Of a DNA stretch of 64,000 bases, positions 7,939-56,856 are shown piece after piece. The position numbers and the translations under genes are program-made. The DNA lies in IMG/VR virus record IMGVR_UViG_3300028327_000538, positions 1 through 64,000 of that record. One strand, written 5' to 3'. Origin of the DNA: a virus (Duplodnaviria > Caudoviricetes). The notes under the pieces were generated by a model, which saw only the letters and a program-made list of their open reading frames with translations, was not told where the DNA came from and searched no databases. Within the stretch, counting starts at the first letter, position 1; each line of letters opens with the position of its first letter.

Positions 7939-8514
7939 TTAATTGTCCTTTCGTAATGCTACCAATTTCTTTTCGGCCCATTTGACAGCCTGGGAAATCG
8001 TGACGGAAGTCGTTGCGCTTCGCCCCTCCATGTCAAAAGTAACTATCTTTACATCCATGCGCTGAGTGGCATTGGGATCGAAGCCGCTGTCGAGCTTTCC
8101 GCGAATTTTCAGTGAATTCCAGCTCGCGTGAATCCAACCCGACCTTGGGTTGGCCGCAGACGCCCCCTCGATCAACAATTGATCATAGACAAAAGTTTCT
8201 GAGGTTAAGAGTTTCAGAAAAGCCTCGAAAATGTTCTCCCCCGGCTTCATTCCCACGTCTATCGCGGACGCGGCCATATGCTGACTTGTGGCCGATGCGC
8301 CGGGTGTAATCGCGTTCAGCTTCGGATTTCTGTATCCACTGTTGATTGTTCTGGGCACGCCACCCAAGATTGCGCGTATTGGCTCAAATACTCTTTCAGC
8401 GCATAGACGTGCACTAGGCATGAGACTTTGTGGAACGGAGTTATCAATCTTATTTTGGATAGCTCTGTTGGAGTAAATAAACTCACTTACAGTGAGATTA
8501 GGTGAGAGATTCAA
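7939..8514 (-). CDS. Peptidase M15A family endolysin
   Basis: INSGYRNPKLN...SQHM..AID...DQLLIE...WIHAS Zn-peptidase motifs. Confidence 0.88.
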   Translation of the reverse strand: MNLSPNLTVSEFIYSNRAIQNKIDNSVPQSLMPSARLCAERVFEPIRAILGGVPRTINSGYRNPKLNAITPGASATSQHMAASAIDVGMKPGENIFEAFLKLLTSETFVYDQLLIEGASAANPRSGWIHASWNSLKIRGKLDSGFDPNATQRMDVKIVTFDMEGRSATTSVTISQAVKWAEKKLVALRKDN

Positions 8515-9134
8515 CGCTTACCTCCCCTGTGTCCGCCACCGCTGTGTCCGCTGTGTCCACCGCCATGCCCCCGTCCGTGCCCATCGCCGCCATGAACACG
8601 TCCACTCTCATGTTTGTGATGCGGCTGTGCTTGTGGCTGCGGTTGAGGAATATCAACTATTTGAGGTGTATGTATTTCCGGCAGATTTCTCAACATGATG
8701 TTGTTGTTCGGGTCGTTGAGGAATCCGCAGGCGACACAGGTAAAGCAGGTGTCTGCTGTTTTGGTCTGGCTCTGTTTGATTGTGAGCAGGTCTTCCGAGA
8801 GGTCTATGGTTTCTCTGCCCTGCGTTTCGGCTGACTTGCGCAATACGAGATGGCGCTTGTCGGGGTCAGAGAGGCGGCGCAGTTTACTGTCAGTGATATT
8901 GCTTTGCGCTTTGCTTGCCGCCACACCCCCAAGAGCAGCCAGACCGGCGGCAATGCTCCAACGCGCAGGCATCTTCAAATTGGGCAATTGCTTACGCAGT
9001 ATCCGCTCGCCCAGCAAGCCTGAAAGGACAGCGCCAGTGCGAAAGGCTCCGCCCTCTTTGGCCTTGCGGGACATGTTTTCTTCCAGTATGCTCTGCATAC
9101 GCTCGGATTCATTGAGTTTACGAAAGCCGATCAT
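8511..9134 (-). CDS. K-x-A motif protein with Gly-rich helices, CxxCxxC and His/Gly tail
   Basis: LRKSAE, QTKTAD; CFTCVAC; HHKHESGRVHGGDGHGRGHGGGH. Confidence 0.6.
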   Translation of the reverse strand: MIGFRKLNESERMQSILEENMSRKAKEGGAFRTGAVLSGLLGERILRKQLPNLKMPARWSIAAGLAALGGVAASKAQSNITDSKLRRLSDPDKRHLVLRKSAETQGRETIDLSEDLLTIKQSQTKTADTCFTCVACGFLNDPNNNIMLRNLPEIHTPQIVDIPQPQPQAQPHHKHESGRVHGGDGHGRGHGGGHSGHSGGGHRGGKR

Positions 9135-10211
9135 TTAGAAGTCCCATTTGATGTCCATTGAGAACGTGCCTAGCCTGTAGTAGTCCGTCCTGTAGATGTT
9201 GTAGGGGATTTTGTTGTTGTAGAGGACGCTCTGCGAAAGCGAGAACCATCCGCCCTGGAGCGCTCCCGTCACTTCCCAGAACTGCGGGAATCCCCAATGG
9301 GCGGGAGCGGCAAACCAGCCGTAGTCTTCGTCAGTTTTCGCCGTGAAAGTATAAATTCGGCGGCTTCTGTCGAAATGCTCATGCTCAAAATTGAAATCAA
9401 AACTTTTCCCGCCGCCCCAAAAAATCATGTGTTGCGCCGAAAATGTGATATTCTTGGATGTGCTCTTCCCGTCAGCGCTAACGGCTGTCAACGTAACCGG
9501 CACCCAATCGCTTTCAATCAAGATGCTCTGTGGCAGCAGAAAAGGGAAACTGCTAACGCTGATGGGGGGACCATTGGAAATGGTGATCTGCACAAGCGCC
9601 GGTTCCTCAGAAAAGGACGCGTCAATCACGATGTTTTTGAGGGATGTGCCGTAGGGTATAGAGGCGTTGGAGCTTGTTGAGCCGCCTGGTATTCCATCGG
9701 CGGATATGACAAATCTTTCGATTGCCACTGAGGACAAATCCTTTTTGAAGGGTATCTGCGGGTCAAAGATGAAAGTGTGCTCGTCAACATAACGGCCAAC
9801 AATTACCGCCCAAATCCCCTCCGGCTCGGCTTTCAGATAGCTGTCGCGCCCCAGCCAGAGAACTCCGTTGCTCTTGGGGAGGGACATGGCGTTGCGGGGG
9901 TCAACATCGCCCAAAGCGCCTACAGTAGGATTTTGAGTCCTGATCTTTTGGGGCAGTTCTTTGGTGATGTTGTACATCAGCCCCTGCTTCATGGCGACGC
10001 GGATGACATCTCCGACTTCGCCGTCCTCAAGAGCCACCGCGTCAACCCAGGGGAGTGTTCTGTTGACTGTGCCCACCCAATTGGAATTGAGTAATTGGGC
10101 GGAATCGCCCATGACTATCAGGCACTGTCCGGCCTTTGCCCTATGGAACAGACGCAGGGTTGATTCGGGATTTCTCATTACAGCCAGCCCCAGGAAAAGA
10201 GACGCCGCCAC
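9135..10211 (-). CDS. Putative virion structural (decoration/fibre) protein
   Basis: 358 aa, beta-rich, inside the head operon; start uncertain. Confidence 0.45.
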   Translation of the reverse strand: MAASLFLGLAVMRNPESTLRLFHRAKAGQCLIVMGDSAQLLNSNWVGTVNRTLPWVDAVALEDGEVGDVIRVAMKQGLMYNITKELPQKIRTQNPTVGALGDVDPRNAMSLPKSNGVLWLGRDSYLKAEPEGIWAVIVGRYVDEHTFIFDPQIPFKKDLSSVAIERFVISADGIPGGSTSSNASIPYGTSLKNIVIDASFSEEPALVQITISNGPPISVSSFPFLLPQSILIESDWVPVTLTAVSADGKSTSKNITFSAQHMIFWGGGKSFDFNFEHEHFDRSRRIYTFTAKTDEDYGWFAAPAHWGFPQFWEVTGALQGGWFSLSQSVLYNNKIPYNIYRTDYYRLGTFSMDIKWDF

Positions 10212-11056: not shown

Positions 11057-12100
11057 TTAGTCTATGAAATCAATTCTTACGACGCTTCTTATGTTGCCTA
11101 TTCCGGCTCCCTGTACTGACCATGCCCACCACTCAAGCTGATTTGTGCGGCGCTTGAATTCCTGCTGAACATCTCTATATATGAAGTTAGAGCCTAAGAA
11201 CTCCGGCGCTGTAATAACGTATATAGAATTAACCGGCCAAGCCGAGCCTTCCGTTCCTTCAGGGTCGTTTTCCGGGGCAGTAACAAAACTGGCCGACATA
11301 TCGTTGTCTTGCGGCTTGATGTCGGGATTGTCTTCGTGCAACGCGCCAGTGCCCTTTCTGGAGTTTATGGAGGTAACAAGTTCCAGCCCCGTAAAGGTCT
11401 TAAATGCGCGAGCAGTCTCAAAAGTAGCGTTGCTTGTGAGGGTGCCCAACTGCATGATGTCGAGCAGCCCAATATCCAGTTGTCGGCTCTCGGTCATGAT
11501 TGCGCGGGTTGCACGTCTGCGGCCATCACTGCCGCCCAATTTTTTATTTCCAGTGCCGTCCAGAATCATTCTTTGGGCCTCAGTAATAATGGCTTTTAAA
11601 TCCTTGGGGACATAACCGGCAATTGTAATAACCTGCCCGGAAAGCAGGGCGGCGGCGTCAAGGATCTTGCGAAAATCCTTGTCAAGGGCTTCCTGGATGT
11701 CCATGATAAAGTTGTTCTCGACTACCTGGCGCACGGGATAGTCCATGGTCGCCATTTCTTCCATAGTGTGCTGGAAGTGCTCGCTCTCGTATTTATTGAA
11801 GTACACTTCATAGCGGGAGCCTTCAAACCACTTGCCTTGACCACGGTTGCGATAGCCCATGGAAAGAGCTTTACTGTCAGGCTCAATATCAATGCGCTTC
11901 AAGGGGTAGAGATCGTTGGTGTTACGTTCAACTTCGCCATCGCCAATAGAGATAGGCGGAATAACGCGATTAAGAACCGACGTCTCACGAAGTCTGTCGC
12001 GCAAAAAGGTCTGCGTGGCGGACGCTGTTTTTACCTGAGCTTCAGGATGGTCTAATATATCCCAGAGCTGTTTTACAAGAATAGAGTTTTCATTTGCCAT
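11057..12100 (-). CDS. Major capsid protein
   Basis: 347 aa from ATG 12100 (AGGGGAAG RBS); follows protease, scaffold-like and decoration genes and precedes a terminator; C-terminal GAGIGNIRSVVRIDF; N-terminal VKTAS site. Confidence 0.75.
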   Translation of the reverse strand: MANENSILVKQLWDILDHPEAQVKTASATQTFLRDRLRETSVLNRVIPPISIGDGEVERNTNDLYPLKRIDIEPDSKALSMGYRNRGQGKWFEGSRYEVYFNKYESEHFQHTMEEMATMDYPVRQVVENNFIMDIQEALDKDFRKILDAAALLSGQVITIAGYVPKDLKAIITEAQRMILDGTGNKKLGGSDGRRRATRAIMTESRQLDIGLLDIMQLGTLTSNATFETARAFKTFTGLELVTSINSRKGTGALHEDNPDIKPQDNDMSASFVTAPENDPEGTEGSAWPVNSIYVITAPEFLGSNFIYRDVQQEFKRRTNQLEWWAWSVQGAGIGNIRSVVRIDFID

Positions 12101-12111
12101 GCTTCTTCCCC

Positions 12112-12504
12112 TTAGATTGTTTTGAAACGGATCATGTCGCCATTGACGGATAGAACAAACCACCTGGCCTTTGTTTCGTCTGTGGTCACAACTAATTTGC
12201 CCCCGTCGGAAATCGCCAGATAGTCGTCGGGTTCCGGTGTGCCCTCATAAACATTGGTCTCGAATTCGCCGTCATTCCATATCGTAGTAATGGTGCCCGA
12301 AGACTGGCGATTCTTTAACTCCCAAACGAATTCGGCCAAACGCTCATCACCAGGGCCAGCAAGTTCATATTTGCCTTTGGATGGCTTAACCAGCATCGCA
12401 AGTGTCAAGCCGTCGATATTCTTAGCCAATGTCCTGGCACAAGTAATCGCGCTGTAAACCCCGTCATGGAACCCCGCTAGAACATTGAAACGAGCTACTG
12501 ACAT
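12112..12504 (-). CDS. Putative capsid decoration/cement protein
   Basis: 130 aa, beta-rich, directly upstream of the capsid gene; AGGAG RBS. Confidence 0.5.
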   Translation of the reverse strand: MSVARFNVLAGFHDGVYSAITCARTLAKNIDGLTLAMLVKPSKGKYELAGPGDERLAEFVWELKNRQSSGTITTIWNDGEFETNVYEGTPEPDDYLAISDGGKLVVTTDETKARWFVLSVNGDMIRFKTI

Positions 12505-12513: not shown

Positions 12514-12804
12514 CTATTTGTAAAAAATTTCTAAAATTTCGGCTTCCGCAGCCATCATTTTTTCAGTGCCGTCTTCTTCGTCAGAAAAAGCCGTTTTAGT
12601 GTAAAAATCGTTGCCAACAGCCTGGCAAAAGCTATGTCGCGCAGACGACTCACCCGCCACTTTCTCAGACTGTTGCTGTTGCTGCTGTGGCGGTTGCTTG
12701 GGTTCGGGCTGATACTGCTGCCCCATCATCTGCTGCCGTTCATCCAGTAACGCCTGAATGACAATGGCGGCGTCTTTTAGCAGTTGGAGTAATTGGGGAT
12801 CCAT
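12514..12804 (-). CDS. Scaffold/internal head-like protein (K-x-A)
   Basis: Gln-rich and acidic; EKVA, TKTA. Confidence 0.55.
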   Translation of the reverse strand: MDPQLLQLLKDAAIVIQALLDERQQMMGQQYQPEPKQPPQQQQQQSEKVAGESSARHSFCQAVGNDFYTKTAFSDEEDGTEKMMAAEAEILEIFYK

Positions 12805-12806
12805 CT

Positions 12807-13112
12807 CTACCTCCCCATCATGCGTAAAAAGGCTTCGGCCTGTTTACCGGCGGCTGTTTTGGAGACACCGTAATTGATATTGATTACGGGGGCGCCAGAG
12901 CCACCCTGAGCGCCGCCGGCAACGGGCGGCTGAGATTCTTCCGAAGGCTCGCCATTGGCTTCCAATACCTCGCGCAACTGGGTCAAGACCCTTTCGGCGG
13001 AAACAGCCAAATCATCCTGCGGGGCTTCGCTGGGCTGCATGGGAGCTTCGCCGTCGGCGGTCTTCATGACTTCCTCGGCTTCGGCCATTATTTTGTCAAA
13101 CCACGTAGTCAT
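12807..13112 (-). CDS. Scaffold/internal head-like protein (K-x-A)
   Basis: Acidic; MKTA, SKTA. Confidence 0.55.
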   Translation of the reverse strand: MTTWFDKIMAEAEEVMKTADGEAPMQPSEAPQDDLAVSAERVLTQLREVLEANGEPSEESQPPVAGGAQGGSGAPVININYGVSKTAAGKQAEAFLRMMGR

Positions 13113-13122: not shown

Positions 13123-13587
13123 CTATTGGATAAAAGACGAAATCGCGCTTTTAAGAGTGTCGCTGGCAGCTTTATCCATCTCTGAATCCTGCTCAATCAG
13201 GGAGAGAGCTATATCGGCGTAACTTTTAGCCAGCTCAGGATTTTGGTTGAGGCCCGATCTGACCAGCTCCACGACCAAATCGCTTCGCCCGTCATTCATG
13301 GCCTGTTCCATCGCCTGATAGATTGTCTGATAATCTCGCGTGGGGTCTGTGGAAGCATCTTCCTCCGCACGAACAGCGGCTTCGTCCACAGTGCCTTCAG
13401 CATTGCCCATTTTTATGAGCATTGTATTAATCGCTTTTTGCGCGGCCTGATGCGCGACCTTTTCCATCATGGGAGTAATAACGGCTGCTATCTTTTCTAT
13501 AAGCTGATCCTGCATATCCGAGGCTTCTTTTATACGATCCTGCTCAGTAATAGCATCAGTAAGTTTCTGATAAGGCTGTTTTTTCAT
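13123..13587 (-). CDS. Scaffold/internal head-like protein (K-x-A)
   Basis: Helical and acidic; IKEA, EKIA, EKVA, DKAA. Confidence 0.55.
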   Translation of the reverse strand: MKKQPYQKLTDAITEQDRIKEASDMQDQLIEKIAAVITPMMEKVAHQAAQKAINTMLIKMGNAEGTVDEAAVRAEEDASTDPTRDYQTIYQAMEQAMNDGRSDLVVELVRSGLNQNPELAKSYADIALSLIEQDSEMDKAASDTLKSAISSFIQ

Positions 13588-13611: not shown

Positions 13612-15072
13612 TTATCTCAATAAAATATTAGGGGCGCAAGTTAAATTTGAATTTGACAGGTATATATCCTTAAAATCCGCGATTTTATTTAAATCCGGCG
13701 CTTCGGATGTCCCCAGGAGAACCTGTCTTAACCCCAGTCCTATGGCCGCGCTCATAACCGGATGCTCCTTGACCTGGTTTCTATATAATAGATACAAACC
13801 GGTAAGAACAGCCCCGACGCCAAGCTCACGATTAAACTCAGCGGAAGTCTTGATAAGTTTTCTCGCTGAATCGTAAATGCGATCCTCAAGGGTATGGATT
13901 GACCGCATGTTTATGGAGTCTTGCCTTATTCTTTCGGCGAGCATTTCAACCTTTTTACTCGCTGATGATGGCGTTGACAGCTCAAAGGTATCGGGGATCT
14001 TTGGATTACTGTCTAAAACAACTTTTGAGCCAATTACTTTTTTCGCTATTTCCTCTTGTTTGAGACATAAAAAAACGAGCGCGGCATATTCGTTTGGCTT
14101 CAATACAATACCCTTGCTGGCGTATGCTCCTAAAATATCCTGGAGATTATGATTAGCCGCCCTGACCATCGTTTTGAGTTCGCCAAATTCTATTGTGTCC
14201 TCCGCATTGGAGACGCGCTCAATAGCGTCCAGCATGTGCTGGGGAATCGCTATTGTCTCCGGTTCCTCCTCGGCCAGCTTGTCGAATCTGCCGATGTCGA
14301 AATAATCAGCCAGGTCGACATTGCCCGCTATCTTCTCCAACTGCATCCCGGCCAGAAACGCCGGGCGCGTCACTTTGGAAATGTCGAAAAATCTTGGGTG
14401 GAGATTAATGGCGGCGACACGCCTGCCATCCGCGAGAATTTTGTTCTTCTGGTACTGCAGGTGATTGCAGTAGCGCAATATGCTCGGAGCTTTGTTCCCG
14501 CAGATGGAGCAGACGTCATAGGGCACCGTGCATCCCATTGAAAATGACAGGGGGGTGTTCCTCGCTATCGCTTCCGCGGTTTCGGGGTCTTTTTTGTTAT
14601 TAACCTCAAGAATAAGAAGTATCGTGCCCATTTTAGGAAACCAAAACGAGTTTCTTACCTTACCAAAGGACGGATCTCGTTCTATCTTGTTCTTGTGATG
14701 ATGAAAAAAATGCGCGTCTTCAAAGGTCTTGTACCTGACTTTTGGTTCGCTTGATTGGTCAAGGCGCTCATCTTTTGACGGTTCATAAGATACGGAACCC
14801 CATTTTGTGCTGCTGTTCTGCTTACCGAGCAACGCGGCGACGGGAAAGTGATCGGCGTTGTTGTTCGCACCCCAAATATCACCGGCGCCCATAGCCGTCA
14901 GAAGCAGATAGCTATGCCCGTCTTTCTTTTTCAGACCTTTTATGGCCTCGTCAACTTCTTTCGGAAATTCCCTCTCATTCGCAACTTTATTAAAAAGAGA
15001 CCTGTCCCTATCCGCCAGGGAGAGTGAGATGCGATCTCTTTCGTTGAGGTTGGTGTCCAAGAGTTTGTACAT
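13612..15072 (-). CDS. Prohead maturation protease with Zn-finger insert
   Basis: NNNADHF, FHHHKN (candidate His), FSMGC (candidate Ser) followed by CSIC...CNH, then FFDISKV; upstream of scaffold and capsid genes. Confidence 0.7.
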   Translation of the reverse strand: MYKLLDTNLNERDRISLSLADRDRSLFNKVANEREFPKEVDEAIKGLKKKDGHSYLLLTAMGAGDIWGANNNADHFPVAALLGKQNSSTKWGSVSYEPSKDERLDQSSEPKVRYKTFEDAHFFHHHKNKIERDPSFGKVRNSFWFPKMGTILLILEVNNKKDPETAEAIARNTPLSFSMGCTVPYDVCSICGNKAPSILRYCNHLQYQKNKILADGRRVAAINLHPRFFDISKVTRPAFLAGMQLEKIAGNVDLADYFDIGRFDKLAEEEPETIAIPQHMLDAIERVSNAEDTIEFGELKTMVRAANHNLQDILGAYASKGIVLKPNEYAALVFLCLKQEEIAKKVIGSKVVLDSNPKIPDTFELSTPSSASKKVEMLAERIRQDSINMRSIHTLEDRIYDSARKLIKTSAEFNRELGVGAVLTGLYLLYRNQVKEHPVMSAAIGLGLRQVLLGTSEAPDLNKIADFKDIYLSNSNLTCAPNILLR

Positions 15073-15147: not shown

Positions 15148-15885
15148 TTAATTGGCGTTTTTCAGACGATGGATGCCATAACCAGCAGTACCCAGGGCAG
15201 CCGCTGCCGCCGCAATTACACCGGCTTTACCGCCATTGCTACGATTGCCCCACAACGGGCCGACAATTTTATTAACTAAGCGTTTGTTTCCCATCTCTTT
15301 AATTCCAGATGTTATTCGCTTCGTCTCATGGACTTCATTGCTATTTAGTGTACTTAATAAACTATTATATTGTTTATTGGAAAGCTCTCCACTTGCGTGT
15401 CGTCTAGCTAAAGCCTTTGCATCGCTAGAGTAATCCGCCTTCTTCTCCATATAGACCTGATTCACATAGTCTTCGCCAATCTCATCAATAAGTCCGCCGC
15501 AAATCTCAGTGGCGACTTTGATATACTCCGCAAGAACCTCATTTTGAGCAGTTTTATTCATCTCTTCCATATAGCCGGCAATGTCATACAGGTCGCAGGC
15601 CATGTCGGCATAATCAAGGCTGACGTCATATGTCTCAGCCGCCATTTTCCCCAGACCGCCACACATACGCTCACCAATGCCAATCAAATCATTGCCAAGG
15701 GCTACAAGGTGTTCTGAATCAACGCCTTCCTGAGCGGCTTCCTGCGCGTTCTTCAAAAAGTCCTCCCCAATCTCAACAAGCGCCTGACCTTGCTGAACGG
15801 CCTCAAAAATCCCGTTCAATTGCTCTTCAGCGATTTTGTCGTGACCATAATTTTGGTTGATGAGTTGCTCTATTAAAAGCGGCAT
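15148..15885 (-). CDS. K-x-A motif internal virion-like protein
   Basis: DKIA, GKMA, NKTA, IKVA, EKKA; acidic N-part, basic C-part with Ala/Gly helix. Confidence 0.6.
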   Translation of the reverse strand: MPLLIEQLINQNYGHDKIAEEQLNGIFEAVQQGQALVEIGEDFLKNAQEAAQEGVDSEHLVALGNDLIGIGERMCGGLGKMAAETYDVSLDYADMACDLYDIAGYMEEMNKTAQNEVLAEYIKVATEICGGLIDEIGEDYVNQVYMEKKADYSSDAKALARRHASGELSNKQYNSLLSTLNSNEVHETKRITSGIKEMGNKRLVNKIVGPLWGNRSNGGKAGVIAAAAAALGTAGYGIHRLKNAN

Positions 15886-15952: not shown

Positions 15953-17134
15953 TTAACGCTTATGTGCCGAAGAAACTTCAAGTCCACCAGGCCCTTTTAT
16001 TTTGAATTCGTTTTTCGCGCCGCCGCCAATATCGCGCATCATCTTAATGGTGTTGAGATCAATACCGTCAAAGGTATTAAATTGATTCAAAAGAACTGAA
16101 AGAGTATTGGGGTCTTTTGCTAGATCGGGTGCGAAATTTGATATTGTTTCAAAGTAAGAGCGGGATTTTGGATTTGCGGCAATTTCAGGTTCCAATTGCA
16201 TTACGCTTTGAAAATTCTGCTCCATCTCTTTGCGTTCTTTGTTTCTCGTGTAAGCCCCAATTATTTTTTTCGCGCCATAGCTTAATCCGCCAAGAACTGC
16301 CGCGCCAACCAATTTAGGGGCGTGGTCAATGGCGTTTTGCTTGAGACTCTGCACAAAGCTGGTATTAAGAGGGATATTCATGGACGCGCTTTTTATATAC
16401 GTCCCCTTGGGGCCGATTACTCGTCCGGCGTGTTGAAGCGGCTTCCTTTTGATTGTATTGCCTATGGTTTTTGGCGCTGCCCTCATAGTCTGCTCCATAA
16501 AACCATTCAATGTTTTCGGTGGTTCCAGGGCTTTCTTTTCGAGTAGTTTTCTGTCATTGCATAGCTGATTTATGTGCTGGTATACGGGTATAAGTGTTTC
16601 CGCGAGTTTTGTGTTGGTTTTGCCGAGATATTCCAGCGCTTCATCGTAGGTCATGTTGCGGACGCGGGGATCATGCTCGGCGATTTTACGAATCCAGCCG
16701 TCGAATTTTTGCGTCGTGTCACGGAGTTCTTTGTTTATGTCTTTCAGATGCTCCAGGCGCTCATCGTTGGCCGCTTTCTGCATAGACAGTCTTTGATGGT
16801 AAGGGCTGCCGAAGATACCCAGACCCAATGCCCTGGATGGAGCAGGGTGGGGCTGTTGGGACAGACTGGCCGCTTTATCCATAGCAGGTTCGTCGGGCGA
16901 CAGTATTTCCGTGACTTTATTATAATCGGCGACATCAAAAACCTGCTGTCCGGTTCTGCGATAATGCTCAAGATAACAGGCTTTATTGGATTCCTCTATC
17001 AATCGCTGTGTCTGCTCTCTATTGAGATTATTGTCGGACGCGAAATCGGCGATTTTGGTATTTATAGCAGAGGTATCTGCGGCGCATGACACGCCAATCT
17101 CTTTACCGGCTGTAATTAAATCTATATTGGGCAT
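15953..17134 (-). CDS. K-x-A motif virion-associated protein
   Basis: Seven K-x-A sites, Gly/Ala hydrophobic helix, leaderless promoter. Confidence 0.6.
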   Translation of the reverse strand: MPNIDLITAGKEIGVSCAADTSAINTKIADFASDNNLNREQTQRLIEESNKACYLEHYRRTGQQVFDVADYNKVTEILSPDEPAMDKAASLSQQPHPAPSRALGLGIFGSPYHQRLSMQKAANDERLEHLKDINKELRDTTQKFDGWIRKIAEHDPRVRNMTYDEALEYLGKTNTKLAETLIPVYQHINQLCNDRKLLEKKALEPPKTLNGFMEQTMRAAPKTIGNTIKRKPLQHAGRVIGPKGTYIKSASMNIPLNTSFVQSLKQNAIDHAPKLVGAAVLGGLSYGAKKIIGAYTRNKERKEMEQNFQSVMQLEPEIAANPKSRSYFETISNFAPDLAKDPNTLSVLLNQFNTFDGIDLNTIKMMRDIGGGAKNEFKIKGPGGLEVSSAHKR

Positions 17135-17348: not shown

Positions 17349-18920
17349 TTAATCATTTTTATCTCCCCTCGGATCAAATGTCGTAATCCGCTCGTTGTTG
17401 TTGCACCCAAGATACATCAAATAGGCGTAAAGCAGCGAGTGGAAGCCGTCATCGGGCAGAGCGTGAGTATATATCATTTTACCCGTCTTATCAGAAAAGT
17501 CTTTGCTGATAGCGAGATAGTCCTTGCCGTATTGGGAAAACTCTTCCCATCTGAACGGGACTACATCGCCGTTTGTCAGCTTGTTAAAGAGGTCTGTCAT
17601 GACTTCTGTTCTGTTCGTGCGGTAGGTGCGCTGTTTCTTGTCCCAGGCCATGAAGTCCTTGATGTATTCATGGCGGATACGTGCCAGACGCGGCGGATCT
17701 CCCAGGCGCTCGTTAATTTCCTCGTTCTGCCCCCACCCGAAACCGTAGTCGGCGCCCACCATTCTGACGTTGAACTCTCTGCATTTTTTGACAATGAATT
17801 CCTTGATGTATTTGGGGTCGTTCTCTGAACCGCCGAATCTTTTGCAATAGACTATCCTGAGTTTTTCCGCGATTCTGTCGTGCCAGCAGATTGTCAGGAA
17901 TGTATAGCCTGACGATCCCGTCGTTTCATTTCCCATGCCCCAATCTATTCCAGCGTAATAAGCATGATTTTTAAGTTTTGCCGGAGGCTCCTCCCACATG
18001 GGGCGGGATTCTTCGCATAAGGCTATAAGCTGTTCGCGTGTAAGCGGCTTGACTCCGTAATCGTAAGGCAACCCAAGCACTTCATTAGAGAATCTCGCGG
18101 CGCTGTATGTGCGCTTGTTGCGGAACAGTTCGTCAAAATCAATGTACTGCGAGGGGAGCATCATGTATTGAAGGTGGATCCCCAAAAAGTCCTTTACATC
18201 CGGCTTGGCGGCCACCCAGATACCATCTAATGTATTTATCAGCCTACGACACTTTTCACACCAGATGCCAGGCTTGTCCATAATCATGTTGTCCTCACCA
18301 AGCTGATTCCAATGCGAGCAAGACCTGCACTTGATAAACCAATGGCATTGATTTGTCTGCTCCCAACTCAGATATAGAGTATTGTCACAAGTCTTTGGCG
18401 TTCCGGTGTAGAAAAACTTTTTCCTTGGCTTATGCTGAGAGCAGGTCTCAATGACGGGGACGAAATCCGCGTCAATGTCCTGGTATTCGTCAAAAAGAAT
18501 CAGTTCCGCTGTTACACCGCGAATGGAGTCAGGAGAGTGAAACGTTGAACGAAAGTGCATGTCCGAATAATTGCGGAGGTATTTGTCCTTGACGTTCATG
18601 ATCCCCTTGCGTCCTGGGTGAAAATTGTTTTTCAATAGAGGAGAGGCGAGCAAAATATCGTCTATTTTTTTTCGGCTGTAAATCTCCATTTGCTTGTGCG
18701 TTGGTGTAACATATAGACTTGAATGATAGCTGTTCATACAAGCCTCTGATAAATGGATACCCGACAACATTGTTGACTTCTCAGCCTGGCGGCTCGACAT
18801 CACCAAGGTACGCTTACACTGACTGTTAATAAAATAGAATATATACGGGCGGTCGGTAAAACGCCAGGGCTGCCCCTCAAGGTACATAGTCCGCTGAATA
18901 AAATCTGAACGTGAAATCAT
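17349..18920 (-). CDS. terL: Terminase large subunit
   Basis: SRQAEKST Walker A variant, IRG...ILFDEYQD Walker B, GTPKT motif III, NEVLGLPY, AGIDWG nuclease, DDGFHS; ATG 18920 preferred. Confidence 0.9.
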   Translation of the reverse strand: MISRSDFIQRTMYLEGQPWRFTDRPYIFYFINSQCKRTLVMSSRQAEKSTMLSGIHLSEACMNSYHSSLYVTPTHKQMEIYSRKKIDDILLASPLLKNNFHPGRKGIMNVKDKYLRNYSDMHFRSTFHSPDSIRGVTAELILFDEYQDIDADFVPVIETCSQHKPRKKFFYTGTPKTCDNTLYLSWEQTNQCHWFIKCRSCSHWNQLGEDNMIMDKPGIWCEKCRRLINTLDGIWVAAKPDVKDFLGIHLQYMMLPSQYIDFDELFRNKRTYSAARFSNEVLGLPYDYGVKPLTREQLIALCEESRPMWEEPPAKLKNHAYYAGIDWGMGNETTGSSGYTFLTICWHDRIAEKLRIVYCKRFGGSENDPKYIKEFIVKKCREFNVRMVGADYGFGWGQNEEINERLGDPPRLARIRHEYIKDFMAWDKKQRTYRTNRTEVMTDLFNKLTNGDVVPFRWEEFSQYGKDYLAISKDFSDKTGKMIYTHALPDDGFHSLLYAYLMYLGCNNNERITTFDPRGDKND

Positions 18921-18933
18921 AACTATATGATAG

Positions 18934-18968
18934 CGCAAATTTTAGTGAGTTTTTGTTATAAACAATAT
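18934..18968 (+). promoter_or_regulatory. Bipartite phage promoter-like motif, copy 1
   Basis: CGCAAA-N11-TTTTGTTATAAACAATAT, then hairpin GAGGAATAA-ttg-TTATTCCTC and TAAGGAG RBS. Confidence 0.7.
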
Positions 18969-21052: not shown

Positions 21053-21909
21053 GGCGTTTTAACAACACCATTCAGATCTTCCAATGTGTATGCTATCGGG
21101 TCTTGATATTCCGCCGGCGCCCCCAGAGTTTCAAACAGGCTCTGCATATTGGCTTCCGTGCCGCCGACGCCAAGCAACGTGTGATACTTCTCTATACCCG
21201 CCATCTTTATTTTAGTCCAGCTTTGAATATCTGCGGTTTTGTTTGAGCGTATGGCTCTCGTCAACTGCATGTCAATAATAACAAGAACCTTCTCCATTTC
21301 GGTCAGCGGACATCTCTCGACTGTTCCGTGGTCGGGCAGCTCAAGCAGCATCAGGATATGTTTACGGGAGTTATAGTCCAGGACTTGCTCAAAAACGGTT
21401 TTAAAGACAGTGTCAAACACGTACTTGCCGACCCAGGCGGACGGATCGCCTATCCTTGAGAAATCGGCAAAATACTTCAGATAACACCTGAGCACTTCTT
21501 CGTTCACCTGATCTTTCAGCAGATTGAGGATCGTCGGAGAGGGGCCGGGGTTTCTTCGGTTGTTGAAGACGGAACTCATCGCGAGCGCGTCCACTTTTAC
21601 GCGCATATCCGTATCGTACAAAAATTCGGAGAACGCCTCGCTGTCAATCATTGAGTCAATATCAATGTATCCGGCGTCCCTCAGAAATATTTTGAACTCC
21701 TTGTCAGTCAAGGCAAGGCTATCGTGCACGGCGTCCTGGACTGACATCGCGCCCAACAGCTTTTCGGCTATCGCCAGGTTTGCGGGGCCGTCAATGATGT
21801 AATATGGGAACAGATCAATAAGTATGCGCGAGAAATCGTATTTGTATCTCCTGCTCGCCACGAGCAGATAGGGCAGTAGCGACTTATAGATACAATCCCT
21901 CGATTCCAT
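21046..21909 (-). CDS. Hypothetical phage core protein
   Basis: MESRDCI start at 21909 coupled (TAATG) to the upstream stop; 287 aa. Confidence 0.6.
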   Translation of the reverse strand: MESRDCIYKSLLPYLLVASRRYKYDFSRILIDLFPYYIIDGPANLAIAEKLLGAMSVQDAVHDSLALTDKEFKIFLRDAGYIDIDSMIDSEAFSEFLYDTDMRVKVDALAMSSVFNNRRNPGPSPTILNLLKDQVNEEVLRCYLKYFADFSRIGDPSAWVGKYVFDTVFKTVFEQVLDYNSRKHILMLLELPDHGTVERCPLTEMEKVLVIIDMQLTRAIRSNKTADIQSWTKIKMAGIEKYHTLLGVGGTEANMQSLFETLGAPAEYQDPIAYTLEDLNGVVKTPH

Positions 21910-23597
21910 TACGCCGCCAGAATATTGAGTTTTGTGATGATCATATCCAGGGCGTTGATAGCGTCCAGAAGCTGAGATTCTTCGATCTTGATCTCTTTGC
22001 GGTTCAGTCTCTTCAGGAACAGTATCTGGCAAAGCCTTTCGAGGGTCTTCGCGAAATCGCCGGACAGCAGACACATCTTGCGAATTGTCGCCGGGGTTAC
22101 GGCGTGAATCTCAAGAGCCTGATCAACGCTTGTGGGATCAAGCTCGCTGATGTCCAGGGCTGTTTTCAGCAGGTTGGCGTCTTCGGCTATTTTGGCTATT
22201 TCGGCGGCAAGTTCAACGTCTTCCGCTGAAGCTGTTTTTTCTTGCCTGCCGGGTCTGCCGGTATAGGCGAAGTTGGCGGAGCCTGTGGCTTGCGCCTGCT
22301 GCACAATCTTTTCGGCGTCCATCGTGTTGAGACCGGTCTTGGTCAGTACCATCAGAGCCTTGACTTTGCTCGTGCCGGTAAGCATGTGCTTATCCAGGCC
22401 GGTGACGCCCTTTTCATCGACATCATACACTCCGGTGGGCGAGTAGCGGACAACGATATTCGTTGAGGCCGTGACTTCCATGTCTGGAGTGTTTCTCTCT
22501 CTACCAATTTTCCTCATTCCCAGAATTTGGTAGTAGTCGGGGATTAAGATAGTGTTATCAATGATCTGCATCTTTTTTAATCCCTCGACAGGTTTAATTA
22601 CGACGTTTCCGTCTAAACCGTCACGTATAGCCAGATACGACAGTTGGTTCCCTATGCGGTCAACTGATTTAAGCGTATAAGGCCCACTGACGAGATCGCC
22701 GTGTTTGATAAAGAAGTCGTCTCCAATACCGGGTGTAAAGCCTGATATGTCAGGTCTGCTTTCACCAAGCACCTTGATGTAAAAATTATTAACCCCCATA
22801 TCGTAATAACCATCGGTAGTCAGAGTTACCGGTGAATTATCGTGGAGCTGGAAAGCCTCTCCACGATACTCTGTGCCTCTTGATACGAAATGTCCCCAAT
22901 TCTTATTTGGTTTATAGGACGGCGCGGGGGCGCTTACATTTTCAAGCCTGGTAAAGGGCGGCAAGTCAGATAGAATGACGTAGCCTCTCCGCATCGCCAT
23001 TTTGAGTATTTCGGGGCCATAGGTATGGGCAAACTCAGGTATTGTGCAGGACGCTTCTTTTTCAAACGTGGTGATGGTGACTGGAAGCGCGTTTTGTGAG
23101 TTCACCGTTATTGTTCTAACGCCACCATCATATGTTTCGTGAGGGCCGACACCCTCCAGTAATTCAGGGTGAAGCATGGCGATTTTGAGCAATGTGTCAT
23201 GATGCTTGTCGAGAAAATCCTGCGAGTAGGTTCGCGCAGTCTTAAAAAGCTGCGCTCTATCCTTTTTAGGAACCGACTTAAAGGGCCATGAGCCTTGTTC
23301 GAGAAACTTTATTGTTCTCTCGTTAAGCGGAAGCATCGTTTTTTTGTCGGTATACAAGTCAAGCGGCGACATTTTATAACGGTTAATAACAATCGGAATG
23401 CGATATTTGTTGCTTAAAAGGATATACCCAAGGGCAGTCCCTGTGCTTTCGTCAATCTTGGGGCACTCAAACCGCTCGATCTTACCTCTGAGTCCGGGAT
23501 ACTTCGCCGTCAGCTTTGTTATGGCGATGTCCCCCCACTGTTGTGTGTCAGGAGGCAGAGTAATTTCGGATGTTGAGTTGAAAAGTTCTTTAAGCAT
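21909..23597 (-). CDS. Large K-x-A motif virion-associated protein
   Basis: FKTA, LKIA, EKEA, LKMA, EKTA, AKIA, LKTA; ATG 23597. Confidence 0.65.
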   Translation of the reverse strand: MLKELFNSTSEITLPPDTQQWGDIAITKLTAKYPGLRGKIERFECPKIDESTGTALGYILLSNKYRIPIVINRYKMSPLDLYTDKKTMLPLNERTIKFLEQGSWPFKSVPKKDRAQLFKTARTYSQDFLDKHHDTLLKIAMLHPELLEGVGPHETYDGGVRTITVNSQNALPVTITTFEKEASCTIPEFAHTYGPEILKMAMRRGYVILSDLPPFTRLENVSAPAPSYKPNKNWGHFVSRGTEYRGEAFQLHDNSPVTLTTDGYYDMGVNNFYIKVLGESRPDISGFTPGIGDDFFIKHGDLVSGPYTLKSVDRIGNQLSYLAIRDGLDGNVVIKPVEGLKKMQIIDNTILIPDYYQILGMRKIGRERNTPDMEVTASTNIVVRYSPTGVYDVDEKGVTGLDKHMLTGTSKVKALMVLTKTGLNTMDAEKIVQQAQATGSANFAYTGRPGRQEKTASAEDVELAAEIAKIAEDANLLKTALDISELDPTSVDQALEIHAVTPATIRKMCLLSGDFAKTLERLCQILFLKRLNRKEIKIEESQLLDAINALDMIITKLNILAA

Positions 23598-23623
23598 AAT
23601 TATTACCGCCACGGAAGGTCGTA

Positions 23624-36316: not shown

Positions 36317-36317
36317 A

Positions 36318-42777: not shown

Positions 42778-43733
42778 AGGTTTTGCTGGAATGTGCGGCC
42801 AATTCTCTTTGCGCCGCCCAGCAGTCTCGAATTTGAATTCGCGAAACTCTGTTTCCAGGTCAGACCGCCGCCAACACCTTTTGCAACGGAATGTCCGTAA
42901 TCAAAAGCGCCCCCCATTATGGCTCCCCGGCCAAAACCCTTGCCGAAAGCCCCTAATCTGGACTCGCCCGGCTGGGCGGTTGCCGCTGAAACTGTTCCGT
43001 CCAGAGCGCCCCATCCCAATGCTGATTTTGCCGACCCGGCAAACAAGCCTTTGTTTTTATACAGGGCTTTGCCTGTCGTCGCTACAGCACCAAGAAGCGA
43101 AGATACTTTGGAAAACGCGGGAAGAGCTTCTTTATAAGTCTGGTTAAGCCGCTGGAATGGAGTGAACTGACCCTTGGGCATCGTAGTTCTTTTGATGTGG
43201 TCCATGTGCGACCCCACTCCCATTGCTCCACCAAACACAGCGCCCCATTTGGCTCCGCTCAACGCGCTCTGCATTTTCTCGCCGCTTGGTGCTGAAATGG
43301 CGTTTATGCCGGCATTAACGCCGGCGTCGACGGCTCCGTGAGCTATGACTTTTTTAGTTACGGGATTTGACCACAATCTAGTTCCAAGCCTCGCCAATTG
43401 GGGAACAAAGGCTTTCTTTTCTATTGACCCTTTCGGGCCAAGCGCTCTATAGGCTAAGGCTCCTCCCAATACACTGGCGCCAACACCTAACATGTATCGA
43501 CCATATCGTTGATGTAGTTTCTTTGGATCATAAGAGAACCCCAAAATGGGCTTTGCGTATGACGTGCCCTTTTCTGTTTGATCGAGTAAATCTCTAATGG
43601 CAAAAGCCGCTGTGCCAGCGGCCAAAGCTGAACCAACATTACGGGCATTGAGTGCGCGATGAGAAGTTTCCTTGACGTTGGACGAGTCACCCAAGCGCTT
43701 GATAGGATCTGGCAACTTCTCTTTGATGGGCAT
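42774..43733 (-). CDS. Glycine-zipper K-x-A cargo-like protein with two internal repeats
   Basis: IEKKAFV; ISAPSGEKMQSALSGAKWGAVFGGAM / ATAQPGESRLGAFGKGFGRGAIMGGAF. Confidence 0.65.
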   Translation of the reverse strand: MPIKEKLPDPIKRLGDSSNVKETSHRALNARNVGSALAAGTAAFAIRDLLDQTEKGTSYAKPILGFSYDPKKLHQRYGRYMLGVGASVLGGALAYRALGPKGSIEKKAFVPQLARLGTRLWSNPVTKKVIAHGAVDAGVNAGINAISAPSGEKMQSALSGAKWGAVFGGAMGVGSHMDHIKRTTMPKGQFTPFQRLNQTYKEALPAFSKVSSLLGAVATTGKALYKNKGLFAGSAKSALGWGALDGTVSAATAQPGESRLGAFGKGFGRGAIMGGAFDYGHSVAKGVGGGLTWKQSFANSNSRLLGGAKRIGRTFQQNL

Positions 43734-44200
43734 TAAATTCTTCCGACAAGGGACTGGGCTTTTTTTGCGAGATTCCTTGAGCTTTGAAGCATGGCAGCGC
43801 TGTTTTGCAGGTTGTCTATTTCGTTTTTAGAGAGCGCTTTTGACACTGTTTCAGCGGTTTTGACTTTACCTAGTCCCAATTTGTTATTAACCTTAGCTGA
43901 TCCCATAGCACCACCGGCGGCTCCGCCAATAACCGCTCCTTTTAATGCACTCTTTATTCTGTGGTCTTTATCGCCAAGAGTACCGCCTATAATCGCTCCC
44001 GGAACGGCTCCTTTAATAACGCCCAAACCAGTACCGCCAATCAATGAGGCGGTTGCTCCTTCCGCTCCCATTCTGGTTAATCCAGCGGCTGAACCAAGAA
44101 CTCCGCGCCTTCCAAGCCAAGCTCCTATTTGTCTAATTAAAGACTCTTTAACAGCGGCTTCTTTTGTTAAGGATAATATATTGCCAACTTTTGTTATCAT
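43733..44200 (-). CDS. Glycine-zipper cargo-like protein with MITKVGNILSLTKEA leader
   Basis: Leader shared with 33977..34813; GAGG RBS. Confidence 0.7.
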   Translation of the reverse strand: MITKVGNILSLTKEAAVKESLIRQIGAWLGRRGVLGSAAGLTRMGAEGATASLIGGTGLGVIKGAVPGAIIGGTLGDKDHRIKSALKGAVIGGAAGGAMGSAKVNNKLGLGKVKTAETVSKALSKNEIDNLQNSAAMLQSSRNLAKKAQSLVGRI

Positions 44201-56032: not shown

Positions 56033-56417
56033 TTGAATCTCCCAGGGGCAGCTTGATATAGCGCACGCCATAGTCAGTCTTAACCGAAATGTTCACGGTT
56101 GCGCGTTTGGACGCGACATTGAAATCAACGGCGCCCAGGACGACATCCTGCAGGTCTGGATGGCTGCCCTTTATCTGCTCGGCAATCATGGACAGGCGGC
56201 TGGACATCTCAACCGAAAACTGCGACTTGTCGCCATAGGTCGTGAGGTCTTCAACGTCGCCACCAAAGAAGCGGCCCCACTCAAAATTTCTGGTGTTTGA
56301 CAGAATGGCGACACAGAGCTGCTGAAGCAGCAGTTCAAAGCCGCTGACTTCTTCGCCAGTCCAGCCAAAGGTGATAAAGCCGTCGTCGGCGATTTTGATA
56401 ATTTTCAGGTCAATCAA
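56022..56417 (-). CDS. gp25/GPW-like baseplate wedge protein
   Basis: VSGFELLLQQL..ILS...FGG; 131 aa directly upstream of the J-like gene. Confidence 0.6.
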   Translation of the reverse strand: MIDLKIIKIADDGFITFGWTGEEVSGFELLLQQLCVAILSNTRNFEWGRFFGGDVEDLTTYGDKSQFSVEMSSRLSMIAEQIKGSHPDLQDVVLGAVDFNVASKRATVNISVKTDYGVRYIKLPLGDSNEI

Positions 56418-56856
56418 ATCCGGTCTCCAACAATTTGGCTAACTCCGCTACCTTGATCAAAAGATTGTTCTTATTCAACTGCGGCGCCAGGCTGTCCTTG
56501 TGCTCGTCCACTTCTTCGGCCCTTCGTAACAGGCTTTCGAGAAACGCTTTGTTGTCTTGCAGGTCTATCTTTGTCGAGACTGTGTAATCAAGGAAATAGT
56601 CGCCGGGCTGTTTGTTGATTTCAGCGATGGTGCGGTTATAGCCTATCTGATCCCAGATGGACGCGGCTATTTCCGTGAGCTGTCCGATGCTGCTGGCGTT
56701 CACAAAGAAATTGGACAGAGCGGAAAAGTCTGTTTTTTCTTCCGGCGTGTTGGGGACGTTGGGAGTTCCCTTCTGGGCTTCCAGTGTGTTCTCGTTCTGC
56801 TCAATGTCCTGGCTGATAAAACTCTGTTCTTCGAGGCTCTTGGTCAGGGGCATCAA
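56410..56856 (-). CDS. Hypothetical tail-region protein
   Basis: Coupled in the baseplate operon. Confidence 0.55.
   Translation of the reverse strand: MMPLTKSLEEQSFISQDIEQNENTLEAQKGTPNVPNTPEEKTDFSALSNFFVNASSIGQLTEIAASIWDQIGYNRTIAEINKQPGDYFLDYTVSTKIDLQDNKAFLESLLRRAEEVDEHKDSLAPQLNKNNLLIKVAELAKLLETGFD

Follow-up and report, generated by a model that had tools for sequence, protein, structure and literature searches.

Our results support a model in which the protein encoded at 13612-15072, a prohead serine protease that folds like assemblin and T4 gp21, recognises the motif [L/M/F/I]-x-K-x-A in the proteins of a phage head module, and as an account of all the data taken together we consider this model likely. 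The motif is very probably the cutting signal of the adjacent protease, because it is dense in the head proteins that flank the protease gene and has been kept in dozens of distant relatives. This signal is distinct from the prohead rule of T4 and phiKZ-like phages, which is to cut after Glu. What we observed directly, in the window (the 64,000-nucleotide stretch of viral DNA analysed here), the contig that carries it and related genomes, is the motif with its enrichment and conservation, together with two modelled folds.

Results

The motif is concentrated in the head block

Occurrences of [LIMFVY]-x-K-x-A (h-x-K-x-A) were counted against composition-matched expectations over the 154 ORFs of the 96-kb contig. 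The six genes of the head block at 12514-17134 contain 21 copies where 3.1 are expected (p 2e-11), and 29 copies of K-x-A where 10.8 are expected. In a blind scan of 400 X-x-Y pairs across all gene blocks of the contig, K-x-A in this block ranked first. As a positive control, the same scan of T4 gp67/68/21/22 placed I-x-E and L-x-E, the known gp21 motif, in the top two positions. The genes of the head module are as follows.

17349..18938, minus strand: large terminase, at the upstream edge of the head module (PHROG 675, E 7e-59; Pfam GpA_ATPase)
15953..17134, minus strand: head-block protein of 393 aa with seven K-x-A between residues 27 and 250 (3.0 expected)
15148..15885, minus strand: head-block protein of 245 aa with seven K-x-A (1.75 expected)
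13612..15072, minus strand: prohead (head-maturation) protease of 486 aa (PHROG 18299, AF2 fold, gene position)
13123..13587, minus strand: head-block protein of 154 aa with five K-x-A (1.46 expected), directly after the protease
12807..13112, minus strand: head-block protein of 101 aa with three K-x-A (0.57 expected), position +2
12514..12804, minus strand: head-block protein of 96 aa with three K-x-A (0.60 expected), position +3
11057..12163, minus strand: major capsid protein, HK97 fold (AF2, Foldseek, homology to Arash gp226)

This order (large terminase, two ORFs, protease, four ORFs, HK97-fold capsid protein) is syntenic in relatives. The window's large terminase contains no K-x-A.

Across the rest of the contig h-x-K-x-A is at background (46 observed, 42.8 expected), K-x-A occurs 121 times against 129 expected, and K-x-L, K-x-I and E-x-L are slightly enriched throughout the genome. 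The initial annotation had called the motif pervasive and had listed instances in thirteen ORFs. Every listed instance is present in its ORF, and its site counts needed adjustment: 13123 has five K-x-A rather than four, and the five given for 15148 are those with a hydrophobic residue at K-2 among seven in all. The reach claimed for the motif did not hold, as ORFs 8511, 42774, 53671 and 33977, each taken singly, carry h-x-K-x-A at background. Enrichment over composition is borne out for the head block and for ORF 21909 (below) but not for the thirteen ORFs as a set, which were picked post hoc; best-13 picks for any motif reach comparable z-scores, and under such picking K-x-A ranks about 40th. 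ORFs 24578 (2 h-x-K-x-A sites, 0.29 expected, p 0.035) and 43733 (3 sites, 0.58 expected, p 0.021) are only nominally enriched, because neither p value would survive correction for 154 ORFs. The stretch at 53.6-56.9 kb, which includes 53671, adjoins a baseplate-J-like gene and therefore belongs to the tail, not the head. We therefore take the motif to be genuine and under selection, with a reach that falls short of pervasive.

The motif is conserved around the protease gene in relatives

We repeated the counts in 57 non-redundant related loci whose proteases are <80% identical to each other. Pooled over these loci, K-x-A ranked first among 400 pairs (z = 33.6), with L-x-K, M-x-K and F-x-K the next most enriched. 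By gene position relative to the protease, enrichment was highest at +1 (186 sites, 23 expected; 8.1x) and reached 6.1x at +2, 7.3x at +3, 6.8x at -2 and 4.25x in the protease itself; it dropped to about 1 at positions +7 to +9 and on the opposite strand, and was 1.10x in distant ORFs. Close to the protease, [LIMF]-x-K-x-A was enriched 7.3x, whereas variants with Lys changed to Arg (1.33x) or Ala changed to Ser (0.98x) or Gly (0.93x) were not enriched, and the h-x-E-x pattern of a Glu rule stood at 0.8-1.25x whatever the residue that followed. The residue after K-x-A is biased to S/E/A, and acidic residues often lie just before the motif. In a complete 168-kb relative (G001), the same blind scan again ranked head-block K-x-A first.

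Individual sites are also retained. Between the window phage and a relative, L098, 18 of 23 sites are kept in place, as opposed to 33 of 76 non-site lysines (p 0.004), and by this comparison K-x-A sites are held by purifying selection. All seven sites of 15953..17134 are kept in L098 at 54% identity, and its orthologues in L002, L004, L006 and L007 have 7-11 sites, which makes this protein a candidate scaffold/core or internal protein cut into 24-60-aa pieces. In 15148..15885 (41% identity) five of the seven sites are kept, and they are the only conserved lysines there. Outside the block, one further protein stands out:

21909..23612, minus strand: conserved protein of 567 aa with seven K-x-A, six of them hydrophobic at K-2

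Here h-x-K-x-A occurs six times where 0.93 are expected (p 4e-4), and nine times where 1.3 are expected in the G001 orthologue, which is 23% identical. K143-x-A145 and K483-x-A485 are invariant in our alignment (A5), and the protein is weakly similar to the virion protein gp218 of Salmonella phage Arash. It is a probable additional substrate of the protease.

The protease family comprises 2,617 clusters at 50% identity in metagenomes, and its cultured members include Arash and the Vibrio phages D181, D148 and D69. The published description of Arash mentions neither a protease nor processing, and no peptides are given in its supplement; the records of the cultured phages that we examined likewise annotate neither.

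The protease carries sites at its own domain borders

PHROG 18299, 'head maturation protease', is the sole curated match of the 13612..15072 protein (E 3.7e-9), which has no Pfam-A family at E<=0.01 and no NCBIfam family. In its AF2 model (pLDDT 79.8), a catalytic domain at ~35-250 is followed by a disordered linker at 251-271 and a helical C-terminal domain at 278-452. In a wide VIA-align search of 48,161 chains, the top two matches were T4 gp21 (5jbl; Z 9.4, 128 residues aligned, rmsd 2.9) and varicella-zoster virus (VZV) protease (1vzv; Z 9.0), and the assemblins of KSHV and HCMV reached Z 7.0 and 6.5; Foldseek alone gave weak matches (E about 1). As modelled, the catalytic domain has the assemblin/T4 gp21 fold. 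A profile comparison with T4 gp21 was not significant (hhalign, E 0.56); its alignment places S178 opposite gp21 S140. H126 is present in 151 of 151 family sequences and S178 in 150, the remaining one being gapped there. The serine of an FSMG motif, which is S178, had been put forward as the nucleophile; its conservation is consistent with this role without proving it, and we treat S178 as a candidate, catalytic residues being assigned here from conservation alone. The catalytic domain additionally has a conserved Cys/His cluster (C188, C191, C202, H204) as an insertion.

The protease itself contains four copies of the motif:

14980..14988, minus strand: site 1, F-N-K29-V-A31, where the low-confidence N-terminus gives way to the ordered domain
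14326..14334, minus strand: site 2, L-E-K247-I-A249, directly past the last strand of the catalytic domain
14272..14280, minus strand: site 3, F-D-K265-L-A267, at the far end of the disordered linker
13678..13686, minus strand: site 4, L-N-K463-I-A465, in the disordered C-terminal tail

Over 150 cluster representatives, sites 1-3 are near-invariant, and all three fall at order/disorder borders of the AF2 model. Among 151 representatives, site 1 has Lys in 129, Ala in 133 and a hydrophobic residue at K-2 in ~121; its flanks are variable and indel-rich, and its Lys and Ala are invariant in a six-sequence alignment (A2). Site 2 (Lys in 143/151, Ala in 138/151, mostly followed by Ser) forms part of a conserved L-x-K-[VIL]-A-S at residues 245-250; the ordered domain extends through A249, pLDDT collapses from residue 251, and we regard this site as a candidate release (autocleavage) site. 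Site 3 has Lys in 130/151 and Ala or Ser in 129/151, then D/E, then I/L/M. Site 4 is kept in L098, whose protease is 63% identical, but not family-wide.

The capsid protein and short leaders

By its AF2 model (pLDDT 78.6), the product of 11057..12163 is an HK97-fold capsid protein: Foldseek against the PDB returned 287 matches at E<=1e-3, including the HK97 prohead and head and many phage capsids, and gp226, the major capsid protein of Arash, is a homologue (E 1e-19). Translation probably starts at M22 (nt 12100), which gives a predicted propeptide of ~26 aa up to the following site:

12023..12031, minus strand: capsid N-terminal site V-K45-T-A47, then S, identified by conservation

K45 and A47 are invariant within an otherwise variable stretch, and 47 of 49 related capsid proteins have K-x-A 6-9 residues ahead of a conserved F-[IV]-R-x-K-L-R-E. 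The N-terminal 60 aa of the related proteins contain 38 sites where 4.9 are expected, as opposed to 17 in the body where 22 are expected. Counting against cleavage, the site falls within a confidently predicted N-arm helix rather than an obviously exposed loop. In distant homologues the pattern is not seen on the capsid proteins: phage G gp27 is without any K-x-A, and the Cali protein is ambiguous.

Two proteins beyond the head block share an N-terminus that leads into the motif:

43733..44200, minus strand: Gly-rich protein of 155 aa with the N-terminus M-I-T-K-V-G-N-I-L, then T-K-E-A
33977..34813, plus strand: protein with a GTG start at 33977 and the N-terminus M/V-I-T-K-V-G-N-I-L, running into K-I-A at nt 34001-34009

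The nine residues are common to both and their DNA differs synonymously; the N-terminus of the 43733 protein is a possible leader or propeptide. In G001, 16 of 267 ORFs begin with M-h-x-K-x-A, ten of them with exactly M-I-I-K-L-A and the others with close variants; these starts differ by synonymous codons, and conservation does not extend into the upstream DNA. In a sister clade, small ORFs just upstream of the protease begin with M-S-[LI]-[IV]-K-L-A. The exact M-I-I-K-L-A-type leader is absent from the window phage.

Discussion

From these observations we infer cleavage, the scissile bond and an order of events. In our model, the helical C-terminal domain would build the protease into the prohead, where the enzyme would free its own catalytic domain by cuts at residues 29-31, 247-249 and 265-267, sites that flank this domain and its disordered linker. 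It would then take a ~26-residue propeptide off the HK97-fold capsid protein at V-K-T-A↓S, and would reduce the products of 12514, 12807, 13123, 15148, 15953 and probably 21909 to short peptides or trim them to mature forms. T4 gp21 likewise processes gp22, gp67, gp68 and internal proteins. The initial annotation had envisaged polyproteins; the pattern instead looks like T4-style degradation of scaffold/core proteins together with removal of short N-terminal propeptides, which fits better. Its proposal that the specificity is K-x-A rather than Glu at P1 gains from the enrichment, its replication in 57 loci, the conservation and positions of sites and the T4 control, cleavage as such being deduced from these sequence patterns.

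The bond most likely to be cut, by analogy with known enzymes, is the one after Ala, with Lys at P3, Ala at P1, S/E/A at P1' and a hydrophobic residue at P5. We favour this assignment because it mirrors the P3-x-P1 layout of T4, phiKZ and SPN3US and the Ala-P1 rule of assemblin. The cleavage motif of T4 gp21 is L/I-x-E (PMC5694885), SPN3US gp245 has A-x-E at P3-P2-P1 and favours Ser at P1' (PMC10052503), and pseudorabies virus sites are Y-L-Q-A↓T and V-Q-A↓S (PMC4498786). Similarly to T4 gp21, phiKZ gp175 (S/A/G-x-E) and SPN3US gp245, the protease described here has the T4 gp21 fold, is encoded upstream of the capsid gene in the head module, and is associated with a short P3-x-P1 motif repeated in core/scaffold neighbours, at the capsid N-terminus and after its own catalytic domain; moreover, the same enrichment statistic picks up the T4 motif or this one. 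In contrast to those systems, the motif here is not x-E but K-x-A, hydrophobic at K-2, and unlike gp21-type enzymes the protein is much longer (486 aa), with a helical C-terminal domain and the Cys/His cluster. Its similarity to herpesvirus assemblin (UL26-type) lies in the fold, in the predicted layout of an N-terminal protease domain, a conserved Ala-ending site, a linker and a C-terminal assembly-type domain, and in the predicted Ala at P1 with Ser common at P1'. It differs in requiring Lys at P3 and a hydrophobic residue at P5, in having many substrates and not one scaffold, in the setting of a bacteriophage with an HK97-type capsid protein of ~305-347 aa, and in that a Ser-His-His triad is only a candidate here. 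The leaders, like T4 capsid-targeting sequences and those of SPN3US gp53/gp54, are short N-terminal peptides common to unrelated proteins that end in the protease motif; unlike those, they measure 6-7 residues in relatives, the window phage lacks the exact form, and a targeting role is putative.

The same motif could instead be cut after Lys (h-x-K↓x-A), as a charge-reversed analogue of T4 h-x-E↓ that resembles the cut after Lys in the HK97 capsid protein. The hydrophobic-x-K spacing equals that of T4 L/I-x-E, and L-x-K, M-x-K and F-x-K rank next below K-x-A in enrichment; we nevertheless judge this unlikely, if worth serious attention. Ala is as strictly required as Lys, neither its Ser nor its Gly variant being enriched, and therefore suits P1 better than P2'; the S/E/A bias after Ala resembles the P1' Ser of SPN3US gp245 and the Ala↓Ser/Thr sites of assemblin, and the ordered protease domain continues through A249. 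Alternatively, the motif may be selected yet uncut, as a docking or assembly element (capsid targeting, scaffold or protease binding, helix capping) that stays intact in mature proteins. The predicted helix at the capsid site fits such a role, and M-I-I-K-L-A and M-S-L-I-K-L-A could be targeting tags per se. We find this decidedly improbable, as sites lie at both ends of the catalytic domain and of the linker, where a release site is expected and where herpesvirus UL26 (PMC4498786) and the autocleavage of phiKZ and SPN3US have theirs. In addition, a small protein can carry as many as 7-11 copies at intervals of 12-60 residues, in keeping with scaffold degradation in T4; applied to T4, this same statistic retrieves a true cleavage motif; and targeting does not preclude cleavage, given that the capsid-targeting sequences of T4 serve both purposes.

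A host or other protease might do the cutting, for example a Prp-like enzyme trimming N-terminal leaders that end in Ala. In Staphylococcus phage 80alpha, capsid and scaffold leaders are reportedly removed after Ala by host Prp, and the leaders found here are short and N-terminal. Such an origin is very improbable: the motif co-occurs with this protease family at 57 loci, peaks in the flanking genes, marks the protease's own domain borders and is unlike the Prp motif, and the cultured relative Arash infects Salmonella, which to our knowledge is without the L27-leader/Prp system. Finally, we tested and reject, as having next to no chance of being correct, an artefact of Lys- and Ala-rich helical proteins. 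The listing of ORFs after the motif had been seen, the similar z-scores that best-13 picking yields for many motifs and the mild genome-wide enrichment of K-x-L, K-x-I and E-x-L would fit it; against it stand the composition-matched expectations, the first rank of K-x-A in blind block scans of two genomes, its replication over 57 loci, the unenriched K-to-R and A-to-S/G variants and the conservation of sites in place.

We know of only a few phage groups in which prohead-protease specificity has been determined experimentally. To these our analysis adds, for a known kind of enzyme, a statistically strong prediction of another rule, with Lys at P3 and Ala at P1, in a protease family with thousands of metagenomic cluster representatives. 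If confirmed, the rule would let annotators predict where mature capsid proteins begin and which proteins are scaffold/core or packaged internal ones; with an Ala specificity like that of assemblin, the phage protease would be relevant to the common origin of maturation proteases in phages and herpesviruses; and a short, testable tag for loading proteins into capsids would be on offer. More tentatively, and aware that this wider proposal may well prove wrong, we suggest that a very large and for the most part uncultured clade of RNAP-carrying myophages uses an assemblin-fold protease with herpesvirus-like Ala at P1, for which h-x-K-x-A would be both the cut site and, as M-I-I-K-L-A or M-S-L-I-K-L-A, a portable N-terminal capsid-loading tag of 6-7 residues. 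If the portable-tag reading is true, the packaged cargo proteome of any member of the clade would be readable from sequence alone.

Results

A head module with a prohead protease

The window covers the first 64 kb of an IMG/VR viral contig of 96,165 bp (completeness ~58% by CheckV). On its minus strand is the head module, which runs, with ORFs named by left coordinate, from the terminase through 15953, 15148, the protease, 13123, 12807, 12514 and 12112 to the capsid protein.

Features of the head module
17349-18938 (-), large terminase (PHROG 675, E 7e-59)
15953-17134 (-), ORF upstream of the protease, from head module order
15148-15885 (-), ORF upstream of the protease, from head module order
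13612-15072 (-), 486-aa protease (PHROG 18299 'head maturation protease', E 3.7e-9)
13123, 12807, 12514 and 12112 (-), ORFs between the protease and the capsid protein, from head module order
11057-12163 (-), major capsid protein, from homology to Arash and an HK97-fold model

The 11057-12163 protein is a homologue (E 1e-19) of the major capsid protein of the cultured Salmonella phage Arash, which is annotated as such and abundant. The AlphaFold model of the window protein (pLDDT 78.6) matches HK97-fold capsids in the PDB 287 times at E<=1e-3, and comparison with aligned relatives points to M22 as the likely true start. It also carries an acidic insertion of ~40 residues (about 268-312) that no close relative has and that is modelled at pLDDT <50. 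Pfam, PHROG and NCBIfam gave no family match for the capsid protein, the candidate substrates, 21909 or 54389, and the head region had no megablast match among cultured phages. Just downstream of the head genes, 7939-8514 (-) encodes a Peptidase_M15_3 domain (E 2.8e-10) and is likely an endolysin or cell-wall hydrolase.

K-x-A is enriched around the protease gene

The initial annotation had described K-x-A as pervasive, and every instance that it listed is present. Pooled over its 13 ORFs, K-x-A occurs 51 times vs 23 expected (z 6.4); we rejected this set as an enrichment test, since it was chosen after the motif had been seen and any X-x-Y motif of the 400 reaches a similar z when its own best 13 ORFs are picked. 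We therefore ran tests independent of that choice. We scanned blindly every run of 4-10 adjacent genes on the 96-kb contig for each of the 400 X-x-Y motifs, and K-x-A in the six-gene block 12514-17134 came out as the best single result (29 vs 10.8 expected, p 3.6e-6), the next other motif being 20-fold weaker. With a hydrophobic residue two before Lys (h-x-K-x-A; h, [LIMFVY]) the composition-matched enrichment is sharper, with 21 sites vs 3.1 expected in this block (p 2e-11) and 46 vs 42.8 in the contig's other 148 ORFs. Outside the block 21909-23612 alone stands out (6 vs 0.93); 24578 (2 vs 0.29) and 43733 (3 vs 0.58) are nominally enriched, and 8511, 42774, 53671 and 33977 are each at background. 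The observation is thus real but confined to the head module and a few other proteins.

As substrates we rejected 8511, 42774 and 53671, in which the motif is at background, and also the baseplate neighbourhood: the region around 53671 is tail, because the neighbouring 54389-56071 resembles a baseplate J protein. The latter (-) is probably baseplate J-like from ESM Atlas features and structure neighbours; its orthologue in G001, a complete relative of 168,567 bp, is 30% identical, and tblastn against phages found no match. For 21909, tblastn against phages likewise gave no match and the Atlas no usable one; only two close homologues were found in a large protein database, and two sites are invariant in this family at 23-61% identity.

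The enrichment recurs across relatives. In G001 (protease 37% identical), the blind scan again puts head-block K-x-A first (39 vs 18.2), with 29 h-x-K-x-A sites vs 5.4 expected. In a 50%-identity library the protease family has 2,617 cluster representatives (E<=1e-3). A locus search with a 20-sequence protease alignment collected 80 IMG/VR loci, of which 57 with protease pairs <80% identical were kept. K-x-A tops the 400 pairs pooled over these loci (1436 vs 608, z = 33.6), followed by L-x-K, M-x-K and F-x-K, and stands at 1.10x in ORFs distant from the protease.

Occurrence of h-x-K-x-A by gene position relative to the protease (57 loci)
Position -2: 215 observed, 31 expected, 6.8x
Protease itself: 301 observed, 71 expected, 4.25x
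Position +1: 186 observed, 23 expected, 8.1x
Position +2: 130 observed, 21 expected, 6.1x
Position +3: 131 observed, 18 expected, 7.3x
Positions +7 to +9: 0.4-1.0x
Opposite strand: about 1x or less

The logo of the pooled sites reads [D/E]-[D/E]-[L/M/F/I]-E-K-[T/V/I/L/Q]-A, then [S/E/A]-[E/D]. The requirement for Lys and Ala is strict: [LIMF]-x-K-x-A is enriched 7.3x, and the variants K-to-R, A-to-S and A-to-G stand at 1.33x, 0.98x and 0.93x, respectively. T4-like h-x-E motifs are not enriched in the related loci (about 1x). Extension of the pattern to the most distant homologues, gp19 of phage G and gp93 of cluster C mycobacteriophages, is not supported: K-x-A is absent from the capsid protein of phage G, and the gp93/gp95 region of Mycobacterium phage Cali shows no clear pattern. 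Cali gp93 (1286 aa, annotated 'tape measure') has the domain of the protease family in its N-terminal part, and only gp94 separates its gene from that of the major head protein, which lies downstream; it is probably a misannotated protease-scaffold fusion.

Sites are conserved and lie near N-termini and domain borders

The capsid-protein alignment shows no variation at K45 and A47, which lie inside a variable stretch, and 47/49 related capsid proteins have K-x-A 6-9 residues before a conserved F-[IV]-R-x-K-L-R-E. Their first 60 residues hold 38 sites vs 4.9 expected, and the body 17 vs 22. In Arash the motif reads L-V-K-E-A29 in the capsid protein gp226 and L-E-K-V-A near residue 222 in the protease gp222. 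Three protease sites are near-invariant among 150 mutually diverged representatives, with K29 in 129/151 and A31 in 133/151, K247 in 143/151 and A249 in 138/151, and K265 in 130/151 with A or S at 267 in 129/151. Between the window and L098, a closer relative (33-64% identity per protein), 18/23 sites are kept in place vs 33/76 other lysines (Fisher p 0.004), and the only lysines of ORF 15148 conserved in L098 are site lysines.

In all six head-block proteins (12514-17134), and in the capsid protein, a site comes within 8-31 residues of the N-terminus. In G001, 16/267 ORFs start with M-h-x-K-x-A; ten have exactly M-I-I-K-L-A, and the others have M-I-A-K-L-A, M-I-V-K-L-A, M-L-G-K-L-A, M-L-V-K-I-A or M-I-M-K-F-A. 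These leaders use different synonymous codons and have unrelated DNA upstream, which places the constraint on the peptide. Two leader ORFs lie just upstream of the protease and 13/16 in one run at 43.7-53.9 kb; the genes of this run are mostly small and adjoin the baseplate-J-like orthologue, and their products may be packaged internal proteins whose genes lie among those for the tail. In a sister clade, small ORFs upstream of the protease begin M-S-[LI]-[IV]-K-L-A; the window's contig has leaders of neither type. Two unrelated window proteins, 33977 (+) and 43733 (-), have in common M/V-I-T-K-V-G-N-I-L followed by K-x-A. Other shared N-termini are R-L-A-D-L-S-P at residues 5-11 of the otherwise different 24578-24922 and 53671-54039, and M-R-Y-P-Q-S-N-Q in three or four proteins, including 57613-58167 and, on the contig, 69055-69852.

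The AlphaFold model of the protease (pLDDT 79.8) is ordered at ~35-250, followed by a disordered linker (251-271) and a helical C-terminal domain (278-452), and all three conserved sites fall exactly at its order/disorder borders. A PDB sequence search found no match and Foldseek against the PDB weak matches only; a wide VIA-align search of 48,161 PDB representatives ranked T4 gp21 (Z 9.4) and VZV protease (Z 9.0) first, with KSHV protease at Z 7.0 and HCMV protease at Z 6.5. Across the family H126 never varies and S178 occurs in 150/151, the latter aligning with gp21 S140 in a non-significant profile alignment. Short natural proteases that possibly end at the cut site look fragment-like. A cluster of C188, C191, C202 and H204 (C-x-x-C ... 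C-x-H), (nearly) invariant in the protease family, is inserted in the assemblin-type domain and may bind zinc; we know of no comparable cluster in T4 gp21 or assemblins.

Other features of the window

In the 1974-aa product of 27468-33392 (-), Pfam places RNA polymerase Rpb2 (beta) domains ahead of Rpb1 (beta') domains on a single polypeptide. The orthologue in G001 shares 47% identity with it, and in Arash beta and beta' are separate and abundant in virions. The window protein has only 2 h-x-K-x-A sites, with no enrichment. At the contig end, on the strand opposite to the head module, 1-5219 (+) encodes a polysaccharide pyruvyl transferase, a radical SAM/SPASM protein and two family-2 glycosyltransferases, which could be host-like or auxiliary genes, or mark an assembly or prophage junction.

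Discussion

We propose that h-x-K-x-A is probably the recognition motif of the 13612-15072 prohead protease, with cleavage itself predicted. The protease would free its own catalytic domain, trim the capsid protein, and degrade or trim neighbouring core proteins. The initial annotation had named this enzyme as recognizing K-x-A, and enrichment, conservation and fold make this the best explanation; its description of the motif as pervasive and of the ORFs as polyproteins we have dropped. The same scan applied to T4 gp67, gp68, gp21 and gp22 ranks I-x-E (15 vs 5.9) and L-x-E (16 vs 7.0) as the top two pairs, with no signal in other T4 structural proteins. I/L-x-E is the experimentally established gp21 motif (PMC5694885), and thus enrichment beside a protease gene reports the cleavage motif in a known case.

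Chance as the source of the pattern is excluded, given the blind scans and the recurrence of the signal in 57 loci. Less probably, the conserved motif is a binding element that is not cut or, very improbably, a site cut by a host protease; the motif is concentrated in the protease and its neighbours, and its sites in the enzyme lie at domain borders. Cleavage might also follow the Lys. If the sites are cleaved at all, we lean towards a cut after Ala, because Ala is required as strictly as Lys, because the next residue is S/E/A, and because the P3-x-P1 layout with Ser at P1' parallels SPN3US gp245 (PMC10052503) and the Ala-ending sites of assemblins (PMC4498786). The N-terminal leaders are similar to the capsid-targeting sequences of T4 and to the leaders that gp53 and gp54 of SPN3US have in common.

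Our literature search found no paper mentioning a K-x-A cleavage motif; its single match concerned enolases. The Arash paper and published proteome contain no protease, cleavage or peptide-level data, and the phage G megaphage paper names gp19 as maturation protease, its cleavage sites not being given. Recognition of h-x-K-x-A is thus a predicted new specificity for a known kind of enzyme, one that is directly testable in a cultured phage.
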